Both the position numbers and the translations under genes were made by a program. The notes under the pieces are model-generated. The model searched no databases, was not told the origin of the DNA, and saw only the letters and a program-made list of their open reading frames with translations. Positions 5,647 through 62,130 of a stretch of DNA of 64,000 bases are shown piece by piece (position 1 is the stretch's first letter; each line of letters opens with the position of its first letter). Source of the DNA: Squalus acanthias (lineage: Eukaryota). Location: positions 44,332,001 to 44,396,000 of the forward strand of contig CM059432.1 of the NCBI GenBank assembly GCA_030390025.1, given 5' to 3'.

Positions 5647-6324
5647 AACATAGGAACATAAGTAGGCCATTCAACCCCTCTAGCCTGTTCTGCCATTCAA
5701 TGAGATCATGGCTGATCTGTGACCTAACTCTCTATACCCGCCTTTGGCCCATATTCCTTAATACCTTTGGTTAATAAAAAGCTATCAAGCTCAGATTTAA
5801 AATTAACAATTGATCTAGCATCAATTGCCATTTGTGGGAGCTAGTTCCAAACTTCTACCACCCTTTGAGTGTAGAAGTGTTTCCTAATTTCACTCCTGAA
5901 AGGTCTGGCTCTAATTTTTAGACTATGCCCCCTAGTCCTAGAATCCCCAACCAGCGGAAATAGTTTCTCTCTATTTACCCTATCTATTCCCCTTAATATC
6001 TTGAAAACTTCAATTAGATCACCCCTTAACCTTCTAAATTCATGGGAATACAACCCTAATTTGTGTAATCTCTCCTCATAACTTAACCCTTGAAGGCCAG
6101 GTATTATTCTGGTAAACCTACGCTGCACTACCTCCAAGGCCAATATATCCTTCCTAAAGTGTGGTGCCCAGAACTGCTCACAGTACTCCAGGTGTGGTCT
6201 AACCAGGGTTTTGTATAGCTGCAGCATAACTTCTACCCCTTTGTATTCTAGTCCTCTAGATATAAAGGCCAGCATTCCATTAGCCTTTTTGATTATTTTC
6301 TGTACCTGTTCATGATATTTTATG

Positions 6325-6532
6325 ATAGCAAAATACTGCAGATGCTGGAAATCCGAAATAACAACAGAAAACGCTGGAAAAACTCAGCAGGCCAGGCAGC
6401 ATCCGTGGAGAGAGAAAGAGAGTTGACGTTTCAGTTCTGATGAAAGGTCATCGACCTGAAACGTCAACTCTCTTTCTCTCTCCACGGATGCTGCCTGGCC
6501 TGCTGAGTTTTTCCAGCGTTTTCTGTTGTTAT
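6325..6532. mobile_element. Fold-back Penelope pseudo-LTR mini-element
   Basis: 80-bp inverted arms 6355-6434 / 6456-6535; TTCATGATATTTTATG duplicated at 6309-6324 and 6533-6548; arms homologous to the Penelope ends at 41785-41887 and 47011-47145. Confidence 0.9.
6433..6469 (+). ncRNA. Minimal type I hammerhead ribozyme motif (Penelope type)
   Basis: AGTT-CTGATGA-A-AGGTC-atc-GACCT-GAAA-CGTC-AACT: stem I AGTT/AACT, stem II AGGTC/GACCT, palindromic ACGT in place of stem III, GUC triplet. Confidence 0.8.
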
Positions 6533-7860
6533 TTCATGATATTTTATGTTCTCTGTACTTGGACCCTGTAGGCGCTTTGGACAGCCACTGTTTTTAGCTT
6601 TTCACCATTCACCTGTTCTATCCTTTTTAGGTCCAAAGTGGATGACCTCACATTTGCCTACATTGAAATCCATTTGCCACAGTTTTGCCCATTCACTTAA
6701 TCTATCAATATCCCTTTGTAATTTTATGCTTTCATCTACAATGCTGCCTATCTTTGTGTTATTGGCAAATTTGGATATGTGACTTTCTATGCCATCATCT
6801 AAGTCATTAAGAAATATTGTGAATAGTTGAGGCCCCAACACAGATCTCTGCAAGATACCACTATTCACATCCTGCCAATTTGTGTACCTACCCATTATCC
6901 CTACTTTCTGTCTCCTGCCGCTCATCCAATTTCCTAACCAGGTCAATAATTTGCCCTCAATTCCGTGGGCTTCTACCTTAGATAACAGTCTCTTATGTGG
7001 GACTATATCAGTTTATCAAATGCCTTCTGGAAGTCCATATAAATAGCATCCATAGACATTTCCCTGTCCACTACTTTAGTCGCCTCTTCAAAAAGTCCAA
7101 TCAGGTTTGTCAGGCATGACTTACCTTTTACAAGGTTCTGTCTGATCAACTGAAAATTTTTGAGGTGTTCAGACACCCTATCCTTAGTTATAGACTCTAG
7201 CAATTTCCCGACAACAGATGTTAGGCTAACTGGTCTATAATTCCCTGGTTTCCCTCTCTCGCCATTCTTAAATAGCGGAGTGACATGCTCAATTTTCCAA
7301 TCTTAAGGAATGGTTCCTGAATCTAGAGAACTTTGGAAGATTATAGTTAGGGCATCTGCAATGTGCTCGCCTACTTCCTTTAAAACCTTGGATGGAAACC
7401 ATCTGGTCCTGTGAATTTGTCACTTTTTCGTGCCATTACTTTCTTCATTGCTGTTATTTTACTTACATTAATTTTATTGAGTCCCTGTCCCCGATTCAAT
7501 ATTAGTTTCCTTGGGATTTCCAGCATGCTATCCTCTTCTTCTACTGTAAATACTGGTGCAAAGTAATTATTCAACATGTCTGTCATTTCCTTATTATCAT
7601 TGACAATATCACCACTTTGCGTTTTTAAAGGGGCCAACAATGCTCCTGACTACCCTCTTTTTTCCTAATGTAATTGTAAAAATTCTTTGTATTGATTTTG
7701 ATATCCCTTGCAAGTTTCTTTTCATACTCCCTTTTTGTAGCTCTTACTATCTGTTTTGTGACCCTTTGCTGTTCTTTGTATCTTTCCCATTTGCCAGGAT
7801 CTGTGCTATTTTTTGCATTTTTGTATGCTTCTCTTGTGAATGCTCATACTGCTGTTATTT

Positions 7861-10154: not shown

Positions 10155-10907
10155 CTGCAAAACAGATATAACAGTACAAACAAATTGTCTAGTAAGAAGA
10201 TATGGCCTAATATAAAGTCTAATTCTGCTGTCCTGCGAGCACACAATCTGTGATTTGCTGCTCATTAAAATTAATGAACACAAAATCACAGGCTGCACAC
10301 CCACAATTTGCTGCAACACACTCCCCATGAGCATGGCTCCCTGCTAATGGGATCTTTTAAAATCTAGGTTCCTGAGATCTTGGTACTGGGCCTTCTCAGC
10401 CATGGACAAGCATATGTGCCCCCTCTGGGGAGAGTTAGTTGTTTCCTTATTATTCCCTCCAAGCTTCTCCTACTGACTGGTACTCTGTGATTCACCCAGG
10501 TATATCCCCTCTGTCTCAGTCGTGGCCCTGTCCCAAGTATCTGGGCTGGTGCTTGAATAAGTAAGGTGCCATGACAGAATGACTGAATTATGTGGAGGAA
10601 GAGTTCCTCTGGAAATTACAGTCTGCTTGTCAAGTGCTTCTTTCTGTAACTGTGCAACAGCTGTGAGGGACATAAAAGAAATTAATTTTAGAAAGATGCT
10701 CTCTGACTTGTGAATCAGATGCTGTGACTGAGCAATAGCAGGACACCTTTCAAGTCATCAGAATGTCTTCAGACCGTAGAAATTCACAGCTTTGTGAATC
10801 CTGTCATTGCTTTTCAACGTTCAAGTGCAACTCCAGCTCTTTCACTCTCTCTTCCCCTTCTGAGTCACCTGCTGTGTGTCCAGCCATTTCAGCTGCAGCA
10901 GTCTTTT

Positions 10908-32815: not shown

Positions 32816-34933
32816 ACACAAGATTTGTCTATTTGTCTAATCTCCTCAAAATATTTTAGAATAAAAATGTATTGCTTGATCATTGTATGCATATTATAGA
32901 TGTATAAAAATAAGATGAAGAACATGTGCTGCTCCAAAACTTGATTGTTTTGTTCATGTAAAATAAACTGGGTCAAAAAGACTATATAATCGCTCTGCAG
33001 ATGGAGCCTGCAATTTCTTTTTTGGCTTGTTCATCCAACTTGAAACCTTCCCAGAATGAATTAAAGGTCAGTCTTACATCTTCTTGTAAATCTCCAGATT
33101 GCATCTCCAGTCTTCACCTGATTCACCAGTTAGCAGGAAGGCCTGTAAGCAATTATAGCCACGTAGCATATCATTTCAAACAAAATATCCCCTCACTTTT
33201 ATTCTTCCTTTCAGTTTTTTCCTCATTGGCGTGTTAAATTTGAGAAAGCAAATAATCTCTCTATCATGCTGAATGTTGCCTGTTGCATTTAGGAATGCGA
33301 TTATAAGCCGCAGTTTCAGTCTGAAGATTCGGGTCAATCTCAAACCTCTTATGAGAAGATTGTGGCAAAATGAGTGGGACATAACAGTATTGTGGGCAAA
33401 CAGACATAAGAAATAGGAGCAGGAGTAGGCCATTCGGCCCTTCAAGCCTGCTCCACCATTCAATAATAAGGGATTAAGATTGGGGCGGTAATGAGCTAAC
33501 GTGCTAACACTCAGAATCGCAAATCAGATACATACACATGGAATTAAACCCTTTCCTATTGAAGTAACTGGTTCATAAAGTGCACATGAGACCTTAGCAT
33601 ATTAAAAAAAAACGCCTTGCATTTGCTTTTGGGACACTTGGAAATCATCTTGATTGAGCAATACAGCAGTAATGTGACAACTACACAGTGGATTGGCTGA
33701 GATCTGCTACATCACCAGGACACTGCTGCCAACATTCTGAGGTAAATCGATATAATATTACCCATTGGACAAGGCCAAAAAAGTATATATAAGTCAAAAC
33801 ACATAATTAATATTTATTTTTCTGTCTGCTTTGTGCTTCTATAGTACTGATTCTATAGAGGCTGATTTTGAATTGACCGTTTCCATCAGACATTTGAATT
33901 CCGTTGGCGAGCTGCTCACACATTCGGAACAACTTGCTGATCAGGAAAGCGGTAAATTTGCTGCTTCTCCACGGAGCCCAGCTGATCCAAATAGGTTAAG
34001 AGAGGTGGAAGCGATCGTGAGGGAGGGACACAGCGGGGGTGTAACGGGGGTATGGATCTTTGTGGAGTGAGGAGGAACATTAATGCTCCTCCTGATCAAA
34101 CAAAAATCATTTAAAATGCTTTTTCTTACCTTCCTTTGAGCATCCTGCAGTGGTCCAATTAATGCTGCGTCTACTGGTATTTCAAAATTACATTGGGGTC
34201 CTAGTGATGTCAAAGAAACCCAATTTGTATGGGCTAATGAGGCTTCAAAGTGGCAGTAGCCTCGCTGTTACTGGGAAAGAGGCAATAAGTACTTTGCCGC
34301 CACTTTTATTGTGCTATTGTCCTGTTCCCACCACATGAGAGGGGGGGACGAAAATAGTGGTAGTTACAAAGATGAATACAGATGAGGGAGGACATTCAAC
34401 TCATTTAGCTCAATCTTTATTAGAAACCAATTGTTCCTGTTAAACCCCCCAATCTCCTCTTGATTGATTTCAGAGTTTCTGTCTTCATTTCCTTCATGCA
34501 TGAAGATGACAGCACTTGTTGAAAAGAGAATGAGTGCAAAATTCTGCTCCGTAGCACCTGTTGCTTGGGTGCTGCGGGTGCCGTTTTGGTTCCAAAATGG
34601 CATTCACAGCATGCGCGCAGACTTCTGGTGTGGGCCAAGACGGACGCCATCTTGGGTAGGGTGTTAACATGGGCGCAGAGAGCACGTGCAGAAGTATGCA
34701 GAATAGGCAGATCGTGATGTCAATCAACGTGTAACGCTGATTTGATGCCAACACTACTATTTTGGAGCTCAACGCTTCAGCTAACACCCTCTCTTAAGCT
34801 CGCACAGCTGAACATGCATTCAACAGCAGGAAGGACCCCCCACCAGCGCTATTTAAAGTTTCATCAACTACTTACAGGTTAAAAATGAGAAGTCGCACAA
34901 CACCAGGTTACAGTCCAACAGTTTTATTTAAAA

Positions 34934-34971
34934 TTACGAGCTTTCGGAGCTGTTGCCCCTTCGTCAGGTAA
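34934..34971 (-). ncRNA. Mirror hammerhead motif, sense to the NECAB1 pre-mRNA
   Basis: Reverse complement reads TTAC-CTGACGA-A-GGGGC-aaca-GCTCC-GAAA-GCTC-GTAA. Confidence 0.78.
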
Positions 34972-35023
34972 AGCTACAGTGAGGGAATCTATTACACATT
35001 ATATAGATTCCCTCACTGTACCT

Positions 35024-35061
35024 TTACCTGACGAAGGGGCAGCAGCTCCGAAAGCTCGTAA
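35024..35061 (+). ncRNA. Minimal type I hammerhead ribozyme motif
   Basis: TTAC-CTGACGA-A-GGGGC-agca-GCTCC-GAAA-GCTC-GTAA: stem I TTAC/GTAA, 5-bp stem II with one G-U, palindromic AGCT, CUC triplet. Confidence 0.8.
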
Positions 35062-35323
35062 TTTTAAATAAAACTGTTGGACTATAACCTGGTGTTGTGC
35101 GACTTCTCATTTTTGTCCACCCCAGTCCAACACCGGCATCTCCGCATCATACTTACAGGTTAGTTGCTGATTGATTTCTACTGGCTCTTACCGCATTTGT
35201 AGAAGAGTTTGGTGGTTTCTAGAGTTATTTAAAGTTGCTAAAGGCTACAGGGAGTGGTGTGGCAGGTGCTGAAGGACTTTGTCCTGACTTCAAGGATTCT
35301 GCACAGACCACTTGCTGCCAGAC

Positions 35324-40227: not shown

Positions 40228-40509
40228 AGAACCTATTTGGATAGAATTAAGGAACAGTAGAGGAGCTATTACGCTGCTGGGTGTATATTATAGGCCGCCA
40301 AATAGTGGGAAGGAGATAGAGGAGCAAATTTTCAGGGATATTGCAGAAGATGCAAAAACTTTGGAGTAGTGATAATGGGGGATTTCAATTTTCCTAATAT
40401 AGACTGGAAAAATAACAGTGTAAAGGGCAAAGAGGGGAAGGAATTCCGTAAAATATATATAAGAGAACGTTCTTGATCAGTATGTTTCCAGCCCAATGAG
40501 AAAGGAGTC

Positions 40510-41887
40510 TCCTCTACATTGGGAGGACCAAACGCAGATTGGGTGACCGCTTTGCGGAACACCTCCGTTCAGTCTGTAAGTGTGACCCAGAGCTTCCGGT
40601 CACCTGTCACTTTAATTCCCTGCTCCACTCCCACTCTGACCACTCCATCCTCGGCCTCTTACACTGTTCCAACAAAGCTCAACCTAAGCTCGAGGAACAG
40701 CACCTCATCTTTCGATTAGGCACTTTACAGCCTTCTGGACTCAACATCGAGTTCAACAATTTCAGACCATAACCTCTGCCCCTATCATTTTTTCATTTTT
40801 TTTTCTCTCTCTCACATGGCAGCTGTTGATCATTCTGCCATTGCCATTTACACCTCATCTAGAGTCATCTTTTGTTTCTTAACTTGTCCCATTACCATCT
40901 CCTTTTGCCTTGCACCATCATCCCTTTTGTCTCTTAGGGGGAAAAATTTGGTTGGTTTGCGCCTCCCGTTAGCGCCTTAAGAGGGCTCCGGTAGCGCCCC
41001 GGACCAGATATTGAGTGGCGCCCCCTGCCTTACCACCTGCCGCTAGCAACGACAGGTTGAGGAGAGCGTTGTGCAGTTGGGAAGGGACTGGGGGAGCGCT
41101 ATTTAAAGGCGACCGGTTCCTGCCTTTTTGTTTGGCGACATTTTTGCACCATGCATTCTGAGTGAGAGAGAGAGACTTATGGAGATATTCAAAGCTGTGT
41201 TGAGGAGTTTTGGGTACTGAGCAGCACTTTGCAGGTTCATTTTGATTTGATCTTCCTTGCATCAATTTAGAAGAGACTATGAGGGCTGCACTATGACATC
41301 TTTCCCTGGGCCTCTCCATTGTTCTTTCCAGTAGATTTGATGTACAGATCTCTCCAGGCCGAGATTCAAGGCTGCAATGAGCAGGATGTGGATGGAGAGC
41401 AAGATCGACCCTCCCCTTTAAGAACTGGTTGGCGCCATTGTGTCTGTGTTCCATTGCTGACTGACATCACATGAGCTTCGCCAGCGCTCTGAGGTAGCGC
41501 CTCGCTGCTCAGCGTTAGCGCCTTAAGGGAGGCGTGTAGCGTCTGATTTAGCGCTCCAATCACCTCCAGGGGCGATAGAAGCCAAGTTTGCAGTCAGAGG
41601 CGATAAGTAGCGCCAGGCGCTAAACTTTGCACCCAGATGATAATTGCACCCCAAACGGGGCAATACCGAACTTCTCCCCCTTAATCTCTCCTGCCTTCCA
41701 TCCTATCACAGACCTTCTCTTTTGTTCTTTCCTCCCCTCCCCCCTTTCCCTGCCCGTACACTTGCTTAAAAACCAACTTTTTCCAGTTCTGACAAAGGGT
41801 CATCGACCTGAAACGTTAACTCTGTTTCTCTCTCCACAGATGTTGCCTGACCTGCTGAGTATTTCCAGCATTTTCTGTTTTTATTTT
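40510..41887 (+). mobile_element. 5'-truncated Penelope-like element (GIY-YIG end + pseudo-LTR) interrupted by a MITE
   Basis: LYIG..KRRLGDRFAEH..PVTCHFN..EQHLIFRLGTLQPSGLN; AGAAAGGA duplicated at 40499-40506 and 41888-41895; decayed hammerhead at 41785-41821. Confidence 0.88.
40937..41680. mobile_element. Harbinger-derived MITE
   Basis: TIRs GGGGGAAAAATTTGGT / ACCGAACTTCTCCCCC (13/16); TTA TSD; inverted homologue at 55442-56332. Confidence 0.9.
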
Positions 41888-42280
41888 AGAAAGGAATCAA
41901 TGTTGGATCTAGTTCTGGGGAATGAAGTGTGGCAAGTGAAGAATGTTTCAGTGGGAGAGCATTTGGGAAACAGTGATCACATTATCATTAGGTTTAAAGT
42001 AGTTATGGATAAGGACAAGGAAAAATCAAATGTGAAAATATTCCATTGGAGGAGGGCTAATTTCAGTGAGTTGAAAAGGGATCTTGTCCAGGCGGCTGGA
42101 ATCAAAGATGGTCACCAAGAAATCAAATAGGGAATTCAGAAGAAACTTCTTTACCCAGAGAGTGGTGAGAATGTGGAACTCGCTACCACAGGCAGTAGTT
42201 AAGGCAAATATTACAGATGCATTTAAGGGGAAGCTAGATAAGCATATAATGGAGAAGGGAATAGAGGGGTTATGCTGGTA

Positions 42281-47010: not shown

Positions 47011-48177
47011 CAAATGCAAAATACTGCAGATGCTGGATATCTGAAATAAAAACAGAAAATGCTGGAAATACTCAGCAGGTCAGGCAGCTTCTGTGGAGAG
47101 AGAAACGGAGTTAACATTTTTGGTTGATGACCTTTCGTCAGAACTGGAAAAAGTTAGAGATGTAACAGATTTTAAGCAAGTGCAGGGGCAGGGAAAGGGG
47201 GAGGGAAGGAAAGAACAAAAGGGAAGGTCTGTGATAGGGTGGAAGGCAGGAGAGATTAAATGACAAAAGGTATGACTGTACAAAGCAAAAGGAGATGTTT
47301 CTGGGACAAGTAAAGAAACAATATATGGGTCTAGAAGAGGTGTAAATGGGAATGGCAGAATCATCAACAGCTGCCATCTGAAAAAATAGGGGCAAAGGTT
47401 ATGGTCTGAAATTGTTGAACTCGATATTGAGTCCAGAAGGCTATAAAGTGCCTAATCGAAAGATGAGGTGCTGTTCCTCGAGCTTACGTTAAGCTTCGTT
47501 GGAACAGTGTAAGAGGCCGAGGATGGAGAGGTCTGAGTGGGAGTGGAGTGAGATTTAAAGTGACAGGCAACCGGAAGCTCGGGGTCACGCTTACGGACTG
47601 AATGGAGGTGTTCTGCAAAGCGGTCACCAATCTGCGTTTGGTCTCCCCAATGTACAGGAGACCTCATCATGAGCAGCGAATACAGTATACTAAATTGCAA
47701 GAAGTACAAGTAGATCACTGTTACACCTGGAAGGAGTGTTTGGGGCCCTGGACAGTGGGAAGGGAGGAGGTAAAAGGGCAGGTGTTGCATTTCCTGCGCT
47801 TGTATGGGAAGGTGCCGTGGGAAGGGGAGGGGGTGTTGGGGGTGATTGAGGAGTGGACCAGGGTGTCGCGGAGGGAGCGGTCCCTTCAGAATGCTGAAAG
47901 GGGAGGTGAGGGGAAGATGTGTTTGGTGGTGGGATCACGCTGGAAGTGGCGGAAATGGCGGAGGATGATCCGTTGAATGTGAAGGCTGGTGGGGTGGAAG
48001 GTGAGGACAAAGGAGATACTATCGTGGTTCTGGGAGGGAGGGGAGGGGTGAGAGCAGAAGTGTGGGAAATGGAACAGACACGGTTGAGGGCCATGTCAAC
48101 CACGGTAGAGGGGAATCCTCAGTTGAGGAAAAAGGAAGATATATCGGAAGCACGAGTATGGAAGGTGGCATCGTCAG
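47011..48177 (-). mobile_element. 5'-truncated Penelope-like element (Neptune-like): RT C-terminus, Cys linker, GIY-YIG, pseudo-LTR
   Basis: RKCNTCP and NLVYCIRCS**GLLYIGETKRR on the minus strand; TTCCAGTCAGA duplicated at 47000-47010 and 48178-48188; decayed hammerhead at 47109-47145. Confidence 0.9.
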
Positions 48178-48364
48178 TTCCAGTCAGAGCTGAGGTAAGG
48201 ATTGAATTTAAGAATTTTGATTCTATCAAATATAACAAGTAATTTGAAATACATTTTAAGGTAGAAGAGAATGAACCAATACAAAGAATAAAAATTGTAT
48301 ATAGCAAGATAGAAATAAATCCACTTAGTGATCACTTACATCTATCTACATTATTAAAAATTGT

Positions 48365-50509: not shown

Positions 50510-52018
50510 AATGGGGCGCTAACTTTTGAAAGCTGGAAAAATTAGCGCCAGGCGCTAATGATTCCCAGCTTTCTATAAATTTGGAGCGCTAAAGTGAGTG
50601 GGCAAACATTTGGTAGATGGAGTATAATGTGGGAAAGTGCGAGGTTATCCACTTTGGCAGGAAAAATAAAAAAGCAAATTATTATTTAAATGGAGAGAGA
50701 TTACAAAATGCTACAGTTCAGAGGGACTTGAGGGTCCTTGTGCATGAAACACAAAAAGTTAGCATGCAGGTACAGCAAGTAATCAAAAAGGCAAATGGAA
50801 TGTTGGCCTTTATTGCAAGGAGGTTGGAGTATAAAGTCAGAGAAGTCCTGCTACAACTGTACAGGGTATTGGTGAGACCACACCTTGAGTACTGCGTACA
50901 GTTTTGGTCTCCTTATTTAAGGAAGGATATACTTGCATTGGAGGCAGTTCAGAGACGATTCACTAGGTTAATTCCAGAGATGAGGGGGTTGACTTATGAG
51001 GAAAGGTTGAGCAGGTTGGGCCTATACTCATTGGAATTTAGAAGAATGAGAGGTGATCTTATTGAAACATATAACATACTGAGGGGGCTCGACAAGGTAG
51101 GTGTAGAGAGGATGTTTCCCTTCATGGGGAAATCTAGAACTCGGGGGCATAGTTTCAGAATAAAGGGTCGCCCTTTTAGAACTGAGATGAGGAGGAATTT
51201 CTTCTCTCAGAGGGTCGTACATCTGTGGAATTCTCTGCCCCAGAGAGCCGTGGAGGCTGGGTCATTAAATACATTTAAGGTGGAGATAGACAGATTTTTG
51301 CAAGATAAGGGAGTGAAGAGTTATGGGGAGTGGGCAGAGAGTGGCTTTGAGCCCAAGATCAGCCATGATCTTATTGAATGGCGGAGCAGGCTCGAGGGGC
51401 CAAGTGGCCTATTCCTGCTCCTATTTCTTATGTTCTTATGTTCTTATGTTCTAAAGGACGCAGACAGGGCGGTAGTGGTGCAGCTCTGCACAATGTCCCA
51501 TGCAGTGCTGCCGAAATCCTAGGCTCCTTCCCTCCCTTAATGGGAAGGGCCATCGCTGTAGGCCCTGCATTGGGACCAGTTAGCTGTTCCCCGACGGCAG
51601 CTGCGATCCAGCAGAGTGCCGGGCTAATCGATCGCGGCCGAAGGAAAATGGAAAAAGATTCAAGTACTGCGTTGCAACAATTTTACTACTTACCGCGTCA
51701 ACATCCCCTTTAACTTGTGCACCCGAAGCATCCAGCCTCCTGAACAACGCCTCCTGCAGCTGTCGGTGATGTCGCCCGGTGATACTGCAGGGGGCGGAAC
51801 CAAAGTTCATGTCCGGGGTGCTACCAGGGCAATGTGCAGGACAATGACGTCACGATCTCCGGGCGCAGGAGATCGTGGCGCACTGTGTTACCGCCACCGC
51901 AAACCTCTTGGCCAATTTAGCGGGAGTAGCTCATTTCATCGCGCCCGGTCGGTAAGCGCCCCGTTATCGCCCCCTGGAGGTGATAACAGGAGGTTCTAAG
52001 GAGGCCAATTTCTAGCCC
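50510..52018. mobile_element. Harbinger-like MITE remnant interrupted by a CR1
   Basis: Right end CCAATTTCTAGCCC followed by TTA resembles the 26860 TIR; AGCGCC/GGCGCT motifs; left TIR not found. Confidence 0.6.
50595..51450 (+). mobile_element. 5'-truncated CR1 LINE
   Basis: ORF 50617.. (KCEVIHFG, LVRPHLEYCVQFW, FFSQRVV); (TTCTTATG)n tail; CTAAAG at both junctions. Confidence 0.92.
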
Positions 52019-54909: not shown

Positions 54910-56670
54910 GAAATCTGGAATTCTCTGCCACAACCCATTGTTGAAGCAGATATTAGATAGTGTTTTGAAAATTGAATATTAAATGCAATGGGGAGGGAGT
55001 AGAGTGTGATTAGATTAGATGGCTCATGTGGAGAAAAACACTGGCGCAGATTTTATGGGTGGAATGGCCTGTTTCAGTGTTGTAATATTCTATAATCCTG
55101 TGATCTTTTATTGTTTTATTACACAAGGTTGGAGATATTTTCATTGTATTACAATGTGAGAACTAAAGTGAAGTGAAGAGAGAAATGACATTTATCTGCA
55201 ATTAGATATCATGTAATGAGCCTGCAGTCATTCCACAATCTATTTCAAAGGTCACTCATATAATACATAGAACACCATCAATGTAAGAATAGGAAAGGAT
55301 AATGAAGTCAAAAGGTTACTGGACTGGAAAGGGTAAAGTTTTAGTGAGATAAAATGGGATCTGGCCCAAATTAACTGGGTAGAAAGTTAGCAAACTGGTT
55401 GACAGATCAGCAGTGAGAAATCTTTAAATATGAGATACATAGGGGTAGAAATTAGGTCGCGCCCCATTTGGGGCGCAAATATCGTCCGGACGCAAATATT
55501 AGCGCCTGGCGCTAATTATCGGCACTGACAGGAAACTTCACTTTTACCGCCCCGGGAGGTGAGTGGAGCGCTAAAGCAGGCGCTGCACACCTCTCTTAAG
55601 GCGCAAAGGGCGAGCAGTGAGGCGCTAACTCGGAGCGCTGGCGAAGCTCATGTAATGTCAGTCAGCAATGGAACACACACACAATGGCACGGGCCAGTTC
55701 TTAAAGGGGATGGTTAATCTTGCTTTCCATCCACATCCTGTTCATTGCAGCCTTGAATCTCGGCCTGGAGAGACTTGCACATCAAATGTGCTGGAAAGTA
55801 CAATGGAGAGTACCAGGCAAAGAGCTCAGAGTGCAGCTCCCACAGTCTCTGCTAAATCGATACAAGATATGGCAAATCAAAATGAACCTGCAAAGTGCTG
55901 CTCAGTACCCAAAACTCCTTCACACAACGTTGAATCTCTCCAGAAGTCTCTCCCTCTCTCTCAGAATGCGTAGTTCAAAAATGCCACCAACAATAAAAGA
56001 CAGGAAGAGGCCCCCTTTAAATAGCGCCCCCCCCAGCCCCACAGCGATTGATAGCGTTCCAGTCTTCTGGTCGTTGGAAGCGCCAGGCGGTAAGGCAGGG
56101 GGCGCCACTCAATTTCTGCTACGGGGCGCCACAAGGGCGTTGCACCATGGAATGACGTCACAATCTGCGCGCGCAGGTGGTCGCAGCAGTAAGTTTTAGC
56201 GCCGCCGCACAATCTCAAGTTAAGTTCTCGAGCGGCGCAAACATCGCTGCGCCCGGGCGTTAGCGGCTTTGCGCCCCATTAGCGCCCTCTTAAGGCGCTA
56301 ACGGGAGGCGCAACCAAGTGAATTTTTACCCCATAGAGTACAAAATAAATATATTTGTATAAGGCGAAAAGGGGTTACATCAAAGTTAGAGATGTGTGGA
56401 TAAATAGAGAAAATAAACTAAACTGGAAAATATTAGCAGAACTCAAGGTGGATAAATATCCGGGCCCTGATGACATGCACCCTAGACTGTTGAAATATGT
56501 TACAGAGAAGATAGCAGAGGCACTGGCCACAATTTTTCAATCCTTCTTCAATATGCAATTTGTGCCATGTAACTGGAGAGTTGTCAATGTAATAGCCTTG
56601 TTCAAAAAGGGAGAGAAGGATAAACCTGGTCACTATAGACCAGTTAGTCTAATATCAGTTGTGGACGAAC
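54910..56670 (+). mobile_element. Old CR1 fragments around a MITE
   Basis: 3' tip about 54910-55100; DKYPGPDDMHPRLLK..YRPVSL in ORF 56355..56675. Confidence 0.7.
55442..56332. mobile_element. Harbinger-derived MITE, same family as 40937-41680, inverted
   Basis: TIRs GGGGTAGAAATT / AATTTTTACCCC (11/12); TSD ATA (55439-41, 56333-35). Confidence 0.9.
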
Positions 56671-60907: not shown

Positions 60908-62130
60908 GGTGCTAGAAATTTGTCTTCGCAACACCACTCTGTAGCGCCATGAAATGCCACTAAAACACCAGCCATCACTCTTTCGCCAGCTGGCGGCGGG
61001 TTCTGCAGTGGCCGTCGTTTTCACCCCTCCTTTTGCGCTGCCGGTAACTGACAGCGCCCTGGAGAAAAAGATGGCGGTGTGGTGATGTCAATCAACGTGC
61101 AACGCCAACTTAACATCACCAATCTGAACTTTGACCCTAGCGCTGAATTCAGTGCTGGGTCCTAAGCACGCCAGGTAAACCCTGTGTGCAAGCAGGCTGA
61201 CAGTGGCGATGTCAGCACCTCTTAAACGGATACACACATCATTCAGGTAAGTTTGGATTTAAGATTTTGTACTGTTTTTTAAATGTTATTGAAGGAGTGG
61301 CTTGCTGCAATAAATGTTAAAAGTTTGTTAAGTGTGTAGGGAGTTCTGCTGGATGCTTGCAAGGCCTCGTATGGTAAAGGAAGGCTGCGAATACTCAACA
61401 GGTCAGGCAACATCCGTGGAGAGAGAAACAGTGTTCACATCTCAGGTTGAGATGCTGCCTGAGCTGCTGAGTATTTCCAGCATGTTATGCTGGCATTTCA
61501 GATTTACACCATCCATTCGCAGAGGCAACAGGAAGATGCAGAAGAGGAAGAAGCAGAAGAGGAGGAAGCCGAAAAGGAGGAAGCAGAAGAGGAGGAAGCA
61601 GAAGAGGAGGAAAGAGAAGGAAGAATGCATCCTAGACAGCCCCTTCGTGGCCGGGATATCCGTGATGGAATCATCCACCTGCGGTACCAATGACCACAAC
61701 CCCCATTCCCCTTTCAACATTAGTCCCACACCTTACCTTCCCTCTGTTACTGATCATCACAGTGTCCTCTTGGCCACGATGATGAAATAAAAGCCACCAC
61801 AAAGCAAACTTTCCAATCCAACTTTATACATCTATCCACCCAATATGACATTAAGAAATCAACTCATCACCCTTATGCATTCTCTTAGTGACTGTCTTGT
61901 GTGTGCCTTTGCCTATCCTACTGATGTCACACTTTGCTACCCCAGTGGCTGCAGCATAGCTGGTGGAAGGCTGCTGACTTTCAGTGGGTGACACTGCAAA
62001 TGGCCTTGCTGGTCCACCTTGAGGAGCTGGTGGCTGGGAGTGTGAAATCAATCTTTTTCTTCTTCTTCTTCTTCACTCTCCTCTCCCTCTTCTTGGTCAC
62101 CCACTGGTTGGACAGGCTGCATTTCTTGGG
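60908..62130. mobile_element. Internally deleted Harbinger relative of 38046-40227, inverted, one end seen
   Basis: Begins GGTGCTAGAAATTTG; 61520-62105 is the reverse-complement homologue of 39090-39610. Confidence 0.8.
61385..61505. mobile_element. Decayed fold-back Penelope pseudo-LTR fragment
   Basis: ATACTCAACAGGTCAGGCAACATC ... GATGCTGCCTGAGCTGCTGAGTAT; same family as 6325-6532; ribozyme core absent. Confidence 0.7.

Follow-up and report, generated by a model that had tools for sequence, protein, structure and literature searches.

The insert at positions 6325-6532 of the window (the whole 64-kb stretch of DNA that was analysed) is best read as two head-to-head pLTR pieces of an EN-bearing Penelope-like retrotransposon, likely the product of one aborted insertion, in which a hammerhead motif is predicted to be a buried passenger. 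We give this reading a probability of roughly four in five. The identity of the two pieces as pLTR sequence of a Penelope-like element is highly probable, and we lean slightly towards priming from both nicks of the target, at a tailed and a tail-less start site, as the route by which they arrived.

Architecture and target site of the insert

The insert comprises 208 bp and is flanked by direct repeats (6309..6324 and 6533..6548, plus strand) that are identical at 16 of 16 positions, a match that is expected by chance with a probability of about 2e-7 over 400 boundary pairs. Its two arms, the long one at 6355..6434 and the short one at 6456..6535, pair over 80 bp with 0 mismatches; the right, short arm (to 6535) reaches 3 bp into the right copy of the target-site duplication. 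The structure is asymmetric: exclusively the long arm carries a Penelope tail, an unpaired segment of 30 bp (6325..6354, minus strand) that derives from the same repeat as the arms and extends the pLTR in exactly the same way as the copy at 47016-47045 does; its outer 2 bases are possibly non-templated. The calculated fold of the insert reaches -164.5 kcal/mol (z -24.8), and none of 200 shuffled sequences was equally stable. The size of the insert, the duplicated 16-bp flank and the mismatch-free arms are exactly as the first-pass annotation had described them.

The long arm represents a 5'-truncated piece of the pLTR whose element sense lies on the minus strand; it is identical at 71/80 and 68/80 positions to the two direct pLTR copies of the window. 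Of the hammerhead it holds just the 3' part and lacks CUGAUGA. The short arm (plus strand) is an inverted, tail-less pLTR piece that overlaps the right duplication by 3 nt and stops at the same boundary as the direct copy at 41775-41890. Between the arms lies a hairpin apex of 21 nt (6435..6455, plus strand, short-arm sense), which includes the CUGAUGA core and the greater part of helix II. The inversion junction maps to 6429..6434, where the end of the long arm shares a short microhomology (3 nt exact, 5/6 in total) with the pLTR just upstream of the ribozyme, and where the insert reads TTTCAG and the direct copies TTCCAG.

The host of the insert is an older LINE-type repeat with a reverse-transcriptase remnant at 6602..7012 on the minus strand (RVT_1 at 6605-7012, E 4e-8), and five further copies in the window resemble the LINE flanks of the insert at ~64-74%. 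Three of the four aligned LINE paralogues run straight through the insertion site and the fourth diverges; in the paralogue at 50579-50925 the left flank is matched to 6317 and the right flank resumes at 6542, with 3 bases between. The uninterrupted paralogues carry one copy of the stretch, thus indicating that the 16-bp duplication was made by the insertion, the empty sites being paralogous and not an orthologous allele. The age of the insert is only loosely bounded. None of the 96 paired positions differs, in agreement with the young insertion that had been proposed earlier, but a divergence of up to 3.1% is allowed by this count, and the proposed youth holds within that limit only.

Source repeat and hammerhead motif

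Sequence comparison within the window traces the whole insert, save perhaps 2-3 outer bases, to one repeat, which also terminates two direct elements (47016-47155, minus strand; 41775-41890, plus strand). The left piece (minus strand in element sense) extends from 10 nt upstream to 100 nt downstream of the cut site, tail included, and the right piece (plus strand) from just upstream of the ribozyme to 70 nt downstream of the cut, which is the tail boundary. Seven variants are common to both arms and absent from the two direct copies, which agree at these positions; this pattern is indicative of one source element for both arms. The tail-less boundary is situated at a pyrimidine run ending in AG that resembles a 3' splice site (47040-47060, minus strand; 41871-41890), and a weak match to the pLTR at 10823-10895 (65%, E 0.002) is possibly a very old copy.

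One of the two direct Penelope-like fragments (47016..48178, minus strand) comprises a broken ORF, the 3' UTR, a pLTR with a decayed hammerhead and the tail. Its ORF covers the linker and the GIY-YIG region, interrupted by stops and frameshifts, and matches a ray protein (tblastn, E 6e-69) that has a weak Pfam score as GIY-YIG. The other fragment (40500..41890, plus strand) retains the GIY-YIG C-terminus, an interrupted 3' UTR and a tail-less pLTR. A G+C-richer repeat of ~750 bp (40938-41683) splits this 3' UTR, and part of it recurs inverted at 55432-55997 (84%). With the 90-residue piece encoded at 40500-40769, 11 proteins were matched among 56 candidates, the best named ones stemming from rays and sharks with 61-69% identity. 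GIY-YIG was detected in all four matched shark and ray homologues that were scanned (in one of them above the curated cut-off); an RT core was found just in two of the four, P0004 and P0008, as a weak RVT_1 match, and the fragments of the window correspond to the linker plus GIY-YIG region. The coding piece of the window alone reached E 0.24 for GIY-YIG, and the Pfam search of short in-frame window pieces gave no match for two of three. Three of the four scanned homologues contain the CX2-5CxxC linker, which is assigned in the accessible text of PMC8557442 to Neptune and Nematis, and not to Penelope or Poseidon. The linker thus places the source element probably in the Neptune clade, Nematis sharing the same linker, and the matches to ray and shark proteins make a cartilaginous fish the probable host.

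The sequence of the insert accordingly corresponds to a pLTR located downstream of an RT/GIY-YIG ORF, and the other hallmarks of EN+ Penelope-like insertions are present as well, namely, a head-to-head inverted 5'-truncated copy and a one-sided tail, whose 30 bp fall in the range of 30-40 bp. The pLTR homology and the 16/16 repeat support a Penelope origin and a retro-insertion with target duplication, as the first-pass annotation had proposed. Its term non-coding is valid just in the sense that the body of the ORF is missing. An ATG-started open frame (6325-6403, minus strand) extends across the long arm and tail as far as the insert boundary, which is consistent with a pLTR that holds the start of the ORF of the element.

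A pattern scan of both strands of the 64 kb retrieved three hammerhead motifs, one at 6433..6469 (plus strand) and two at 34.9-35.1 kb, compared with a mean of 0.0 motifs in 50 simulated sequences. The former is the minimal type-I hammerhead without stem III that had been noticed at the apex; its predicted cut lies after 6465, and it is predicted to be buried in the fold-back. Stem I is formed by 6433-6436 and 6466-6469, CUGAUGA (6437-6443) is followed by an extra A (6444), helix II has 5 bp (6445-6449 and 6453-6457), and GAAA (6458-6461) precedes CGUC (6462-6465). The motif thus contains the core CUGANGA / GAAA / NUH of minimal PLE hammerheads together with helices I and II, and both the extra base after position 9 (A6444) and a self-complementary loop 3 (ACGU) are present. 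The conserved G10.1-C11.1 pair is absent. In the simplest register the position is occupied by A6445-U6457 (A10.1-U11.1), a G-C closure of helix II would need a 2-nt bulge and an extra U, and G-U occupies 10.1-11.1 in the direct copy at 41.8 kb. The one paper checked on this point does not mention G10.1, and no influence of A10.1-U11.1 on the rate was found described. Rfam returned no hammerhead model among its 9 matches in the window (E<=1) or its 4 matches in 6425-6500 (E<=10).

The relatives of the motif in the direct copies are indeed decayed: the core at 41785-41821 is damaged (G8 to A), the copy at 47109-47145 has lost G12 and the pairing of helix II, and both carry the triplet GUU. The GUC of the insert had been regarded as the better preserved state, but GUU proved to be the majority of the family. 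In three sequencing runs T accounts for 94%, 72% and 98% of the summed contig depth at 6465, which is not equivalent to copy number, and C for 2-28%; T was also found in two of two raw reads. GUU is moreover among the cleavable triplets according to the available text of PMC3138052. GUC thus marks a minor variant of the family and not better preservation.

Modelled for helices I and II of the monomer, with dimer, tertiary and protein effects left out, the ribozyme fold would cost +20 kcal/mol in a plus-strand transcript that stops at 6469 and +29 kcal/mol in the full-length one, and even without the left arm a local imperfect hairpin (-10.9 kcal/mol) beats the ribozyme fold (-6.5). The hammerhead is therefore predicted to be a passenger that the arms fold shut by ~29 kcal/mol. 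The complete motif belongs to the inverted piece and points the other way from both the tailed piece and the host LINE. The earlier proposal that the fold-back competes with ribozyme folding gains support from these energies, according to which the fold-back would win; the competition is real on paper and looks like a by-product of the inversion. For PLE hammerheads in general, the available text of PMC4209133 documents no cleavage by a single motif and low cleavage by dimers, and dimer cleavage is also covered by the review PMC6765202.

Family context and origin of the head-to-head arrangement

Two further head-to-head structures are located in the window. A fold-back of an unrelated Penelope-like repeat (34869..35161, plus strand) is bordered by a 12-bp duplication (34869, 35150); its insert (34881-35149) has 112-bp arms with three mismatches and a 35-bp tail on one side, and both arms harbor an intact minimal hammerhead with G10.1-C11.1 and the palindromic AGCU. 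Judged by its motifs, this structure is a better ribozyme candidate than 6433-6469. Its junction lies ~20 nt upstream of the ribozyme, its likeness to the insert at 6325-6532 is limited to seeds of 6-14 nt, the ribozyme core included, and no ORF within the window could be tied to the repeat. The other structure (61339..61513, junction 61450/61451) is a decayed head-to-head pair of the same pLTR family as our insert; its arms are dissimilar, and a duplication of at least 6 bp was looked for without success. The three structures in 64 kb thus exhibit three different junctions; two belong to one family and one of these is decayed. The differing junctions suggest ordinary insertion rather than a family with a fixed junction. 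Variable inversion points had been named in the first-pass annotation as the sign of an ordinary truncated insertion, and both other fold-backs of the window differ as expected, but the comparison within the family is a single one with a decayed partner.

Parts of the stretch are held by 20 of the 24 listed sequencing runs, the best share of its words being 0.65, and four of the 24 runs were used for the read comparison (three contig sets and one raw-read run with 16 reads). The repeat is very abundant, with 28576, 88741 and 64521 matched contigs in three runs, flanks included. Of 298 variants, 531 joints and 2846 loose ends, the comparison covers 40, 15 and 20, respectively; a copy that shares the exact junction of the insert would not appear in it as a joint. 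Among the loose ends listed, 487 contigs of run X6 stop at 6324, 348 at 6327 and 306 at 6536. These ends, listed for X6 alone of the four runs, have mixed flanks (A-rich at 6324 and 6327, agreement 0.35-0.43), thus indicating that in this run members of the family recurrently end at both outer boundaries of the insert. One X6 contig joins the tail-less end (6532) to the tailed end (6324) via 31 other letters at a depth of 93.5, which suggests that copies elsewhere in that organism are arranged tail to tail or in tandem. Three runs that were guessed to be RNA hold a share of 0.39-0.42 and three further RNA runs a small share; such shares do not count as evidence of expression.

Priming from both nicks would proceed as follows. 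The endonuclease of the element nicks both target strands 16 bp apart, and each 3' end could then prime reverse transcription on RNA of one source element; the nick in the top strand would use the tailed start site and that in the bottom strand the tail-less one, which has a 3-nt overlap with the target. Both cDNAs would run past the cut site and stop after ~100-110 nt, and we infer that they were joined via the complementarity of TTTCAG and CTGGAA, a feature naturally present on both sides of the ribozyme core. Since TTCCAG precedes the core in the repeat and CTGAAA follows it, the 3' ends of the cDNAs may pair over 5/6 bases. In any read-through transcript of the plus strand, formation of the 80-bp duplex would forestall folding of the ribozyme; the copy at 6325-6532 has no ORF body. 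The formation of inverted pLTRs is treated as still open in the accessible text of both PMC8557442 and PMC11167929, and a two-nick priming model for them was not found in print by a search whose matches, judged by title and abstract opening, concern other subjects, subscription papers and bioRxiv supplements lying outside its reach.

The alternative that an antisense transcript or cDNA folds back at the ribozyme hairpin and primes itself, with later endonucleolytic trimming of one arm at the tail boundary, appears unlikely to us. Self-priming on an antisense template from junction palindromes has been proposed (PMC3846280, as far as its text is accessible), and the tail has been attributed to endonuclease resolution (PMC8557442, likewise in part). 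The position of the junction at the natural imperfect hairpin and the identity of the arms would also fit. However, on the strand with the antisense apex the copied arm exceeds its template by 30 nt, so that an extra trimming step is required, and in the accessible part of PMC11167929 the tail is instead mapped to two start sites of reverse transcription. A plain snap-back with no trimming afterwards was rejected, since the apex lies on the short-arm strand while the other arm is 30 nt longer, and a simple one-strand snap-back could not give the longer tailed arm. A non-autonomous fold-back family, in which Penelope proteins would re-insert entire transcripts of a master hairpin with a fixed junction, is decidedly improbable. 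It would account for the perfect arms and duplication, for the seven variants that distinguish the arms from the two direct copies and for the variant lineage documented by C at 6465, but a single source RNA would give the arms the same variants just as readily. No second copy with the junction of the insert was found in 64 kb, the other fold-backs of the window have other junctions, and at 6432 the match is left by 176, 323 and 264 contigs of three runs, which read on into the ordinary upstream pLTR without fold-back. Two exact-pattern scans of metagenome contigs yielded 0 loci.

The clean 16-bp duplication, the empty site in paralogues and the coincidence of the ends with the two natural boundaries of the family argue against a fold-back artefact of assembly or sequencing, as do the three arm mismatches of the second fold-back (34.9-35.1 kb). 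The perfect arms would agree with such an artefact, and in the sequencing data no listed piece of the four runs spans the locus and no run exceeds 0.65 of its words; its probability is nevertheless very low. The long inverted repeat and weak Rfam miRNA scores (best 50.3 bits, gathering score 82) might recall a DNA-transposon MITE or a microRNA precursor, which is scarcely credible: the left arm is not terminal, the duplication measures 16 bp, the whole insert is pLTR sequence, and all 9 of the 9 Rfam matches are generic hairpins below their gathering scores. Both were rejected. Two head-to-head pLTR pieces, perhaps primed from opposite nicks, remain our preferred reading. As a rather improbable extension of it, the hairpin around the ribozyme core may be a junction hotspot where the cDNAs from opposite nicks meet, with the fold-back arising repeatedly or spreading as a ribozyme-silenced mini-element. 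If there were such a hotspot, a census of these inserts would read out the unresolved second-strand step of Penelope from genomes.

Comparison with known systems

A single insertion of this kind matters little, and its modest value is mechanistic. Short undecayed inserts keep both start sites, the spacing of the nicks and the junction in ~240 bp, and a genome-wide set of them could separate priming from both nicks from self-priming.

The insert is an ordinary Penelope-like insertion with a published layout. An inverted 5'-truncated copy with a one-sided tail of 30-40 bp is described for EN+ Penelope-like elements in the accessible text of Craig et al. 2021 (PMC8557442), a one-sided-tail inverted layout is also found in the available part of PMC8969392, and the sections of Arkhipova et al. 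2013 (PMC3846280) at hand report inverted pLTRs that have a tail of 31 bp, duplications of 8-10 bp and palindromes at the junction. Our insert shares the head-to-head pLTR pieces, the 30-bp tail on one arm, the duplication and the overlap or palindrome at the junction, but its pieces are too short for any ORF body, and its duplication of 16 bp is longer than the 8-10 bp of the examples in PMC3846280. The special ribozyme-only element that the first-pass annotation had envisaged is thus superseded by the inverted-pLTR-plus-tail arrangement of PMC8557442 and PMC3846280.

The hammerhead resembles the minimal PLE motifs of PMC4209133, as presented in its available text, in its short helix I, the extra base between 9 and 10.1, the palindromic loop 3 (here ACGU) and the lack of stem III. 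It differs in A10.1-U11.1 at the place of the highly conserved G-C, in its 5-bp helix II and in being half-buried in a perfect arm. The same text mentions pairs of motifs on opposite strands, 100-700 bp apart, that originate from truncated elements. Non-LTR retrozymes, according to the accessible portion of Li et al. 2026 (10.64898/2026.07.22.740005), are likewise non-coding, related to pLTRs and equipped with a type-I hammerhead, but they are composed of head-to-tail tandem units with a ribozyme each, whereas our insert is a single head-to-head structure with one complete motif. Its assignment as a retrozyme was rejected, since it is a single inverted insert without tandem units.

Twin or dual priming of LINE-1 (Meyer et al. 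2010, PMC2837659, available text) also results in two inverted fragments within a 7-20-bp duplication, some of them with internal microhomology. Twin priming of LINE-1 combines inversion with deletion, whereas the insert contains the same segment twice, the outcome expected of dual priming or of two start sites close together. A biochemical parallel is the purified green anole Poseidon protein, which in vitro nicks and extends both strands and starts at two sites that bound the tail (Frangieh et al. 2024, PMC11167929), a behaviour in direct agreement with the insert. The element studied there is Poseidon and ours probably Neptune, and the joining of two cDNAs into an inverted product is not shown in the accessible part of that work; no primer-template homology is reported there for Poseidon in vitro, whereas the short arm of the insert overlaps the target by 3 nt. 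Poseidon uses an uncleaved RNA template (same source, in part), and both arms of the insert reach upstream of the cut site.
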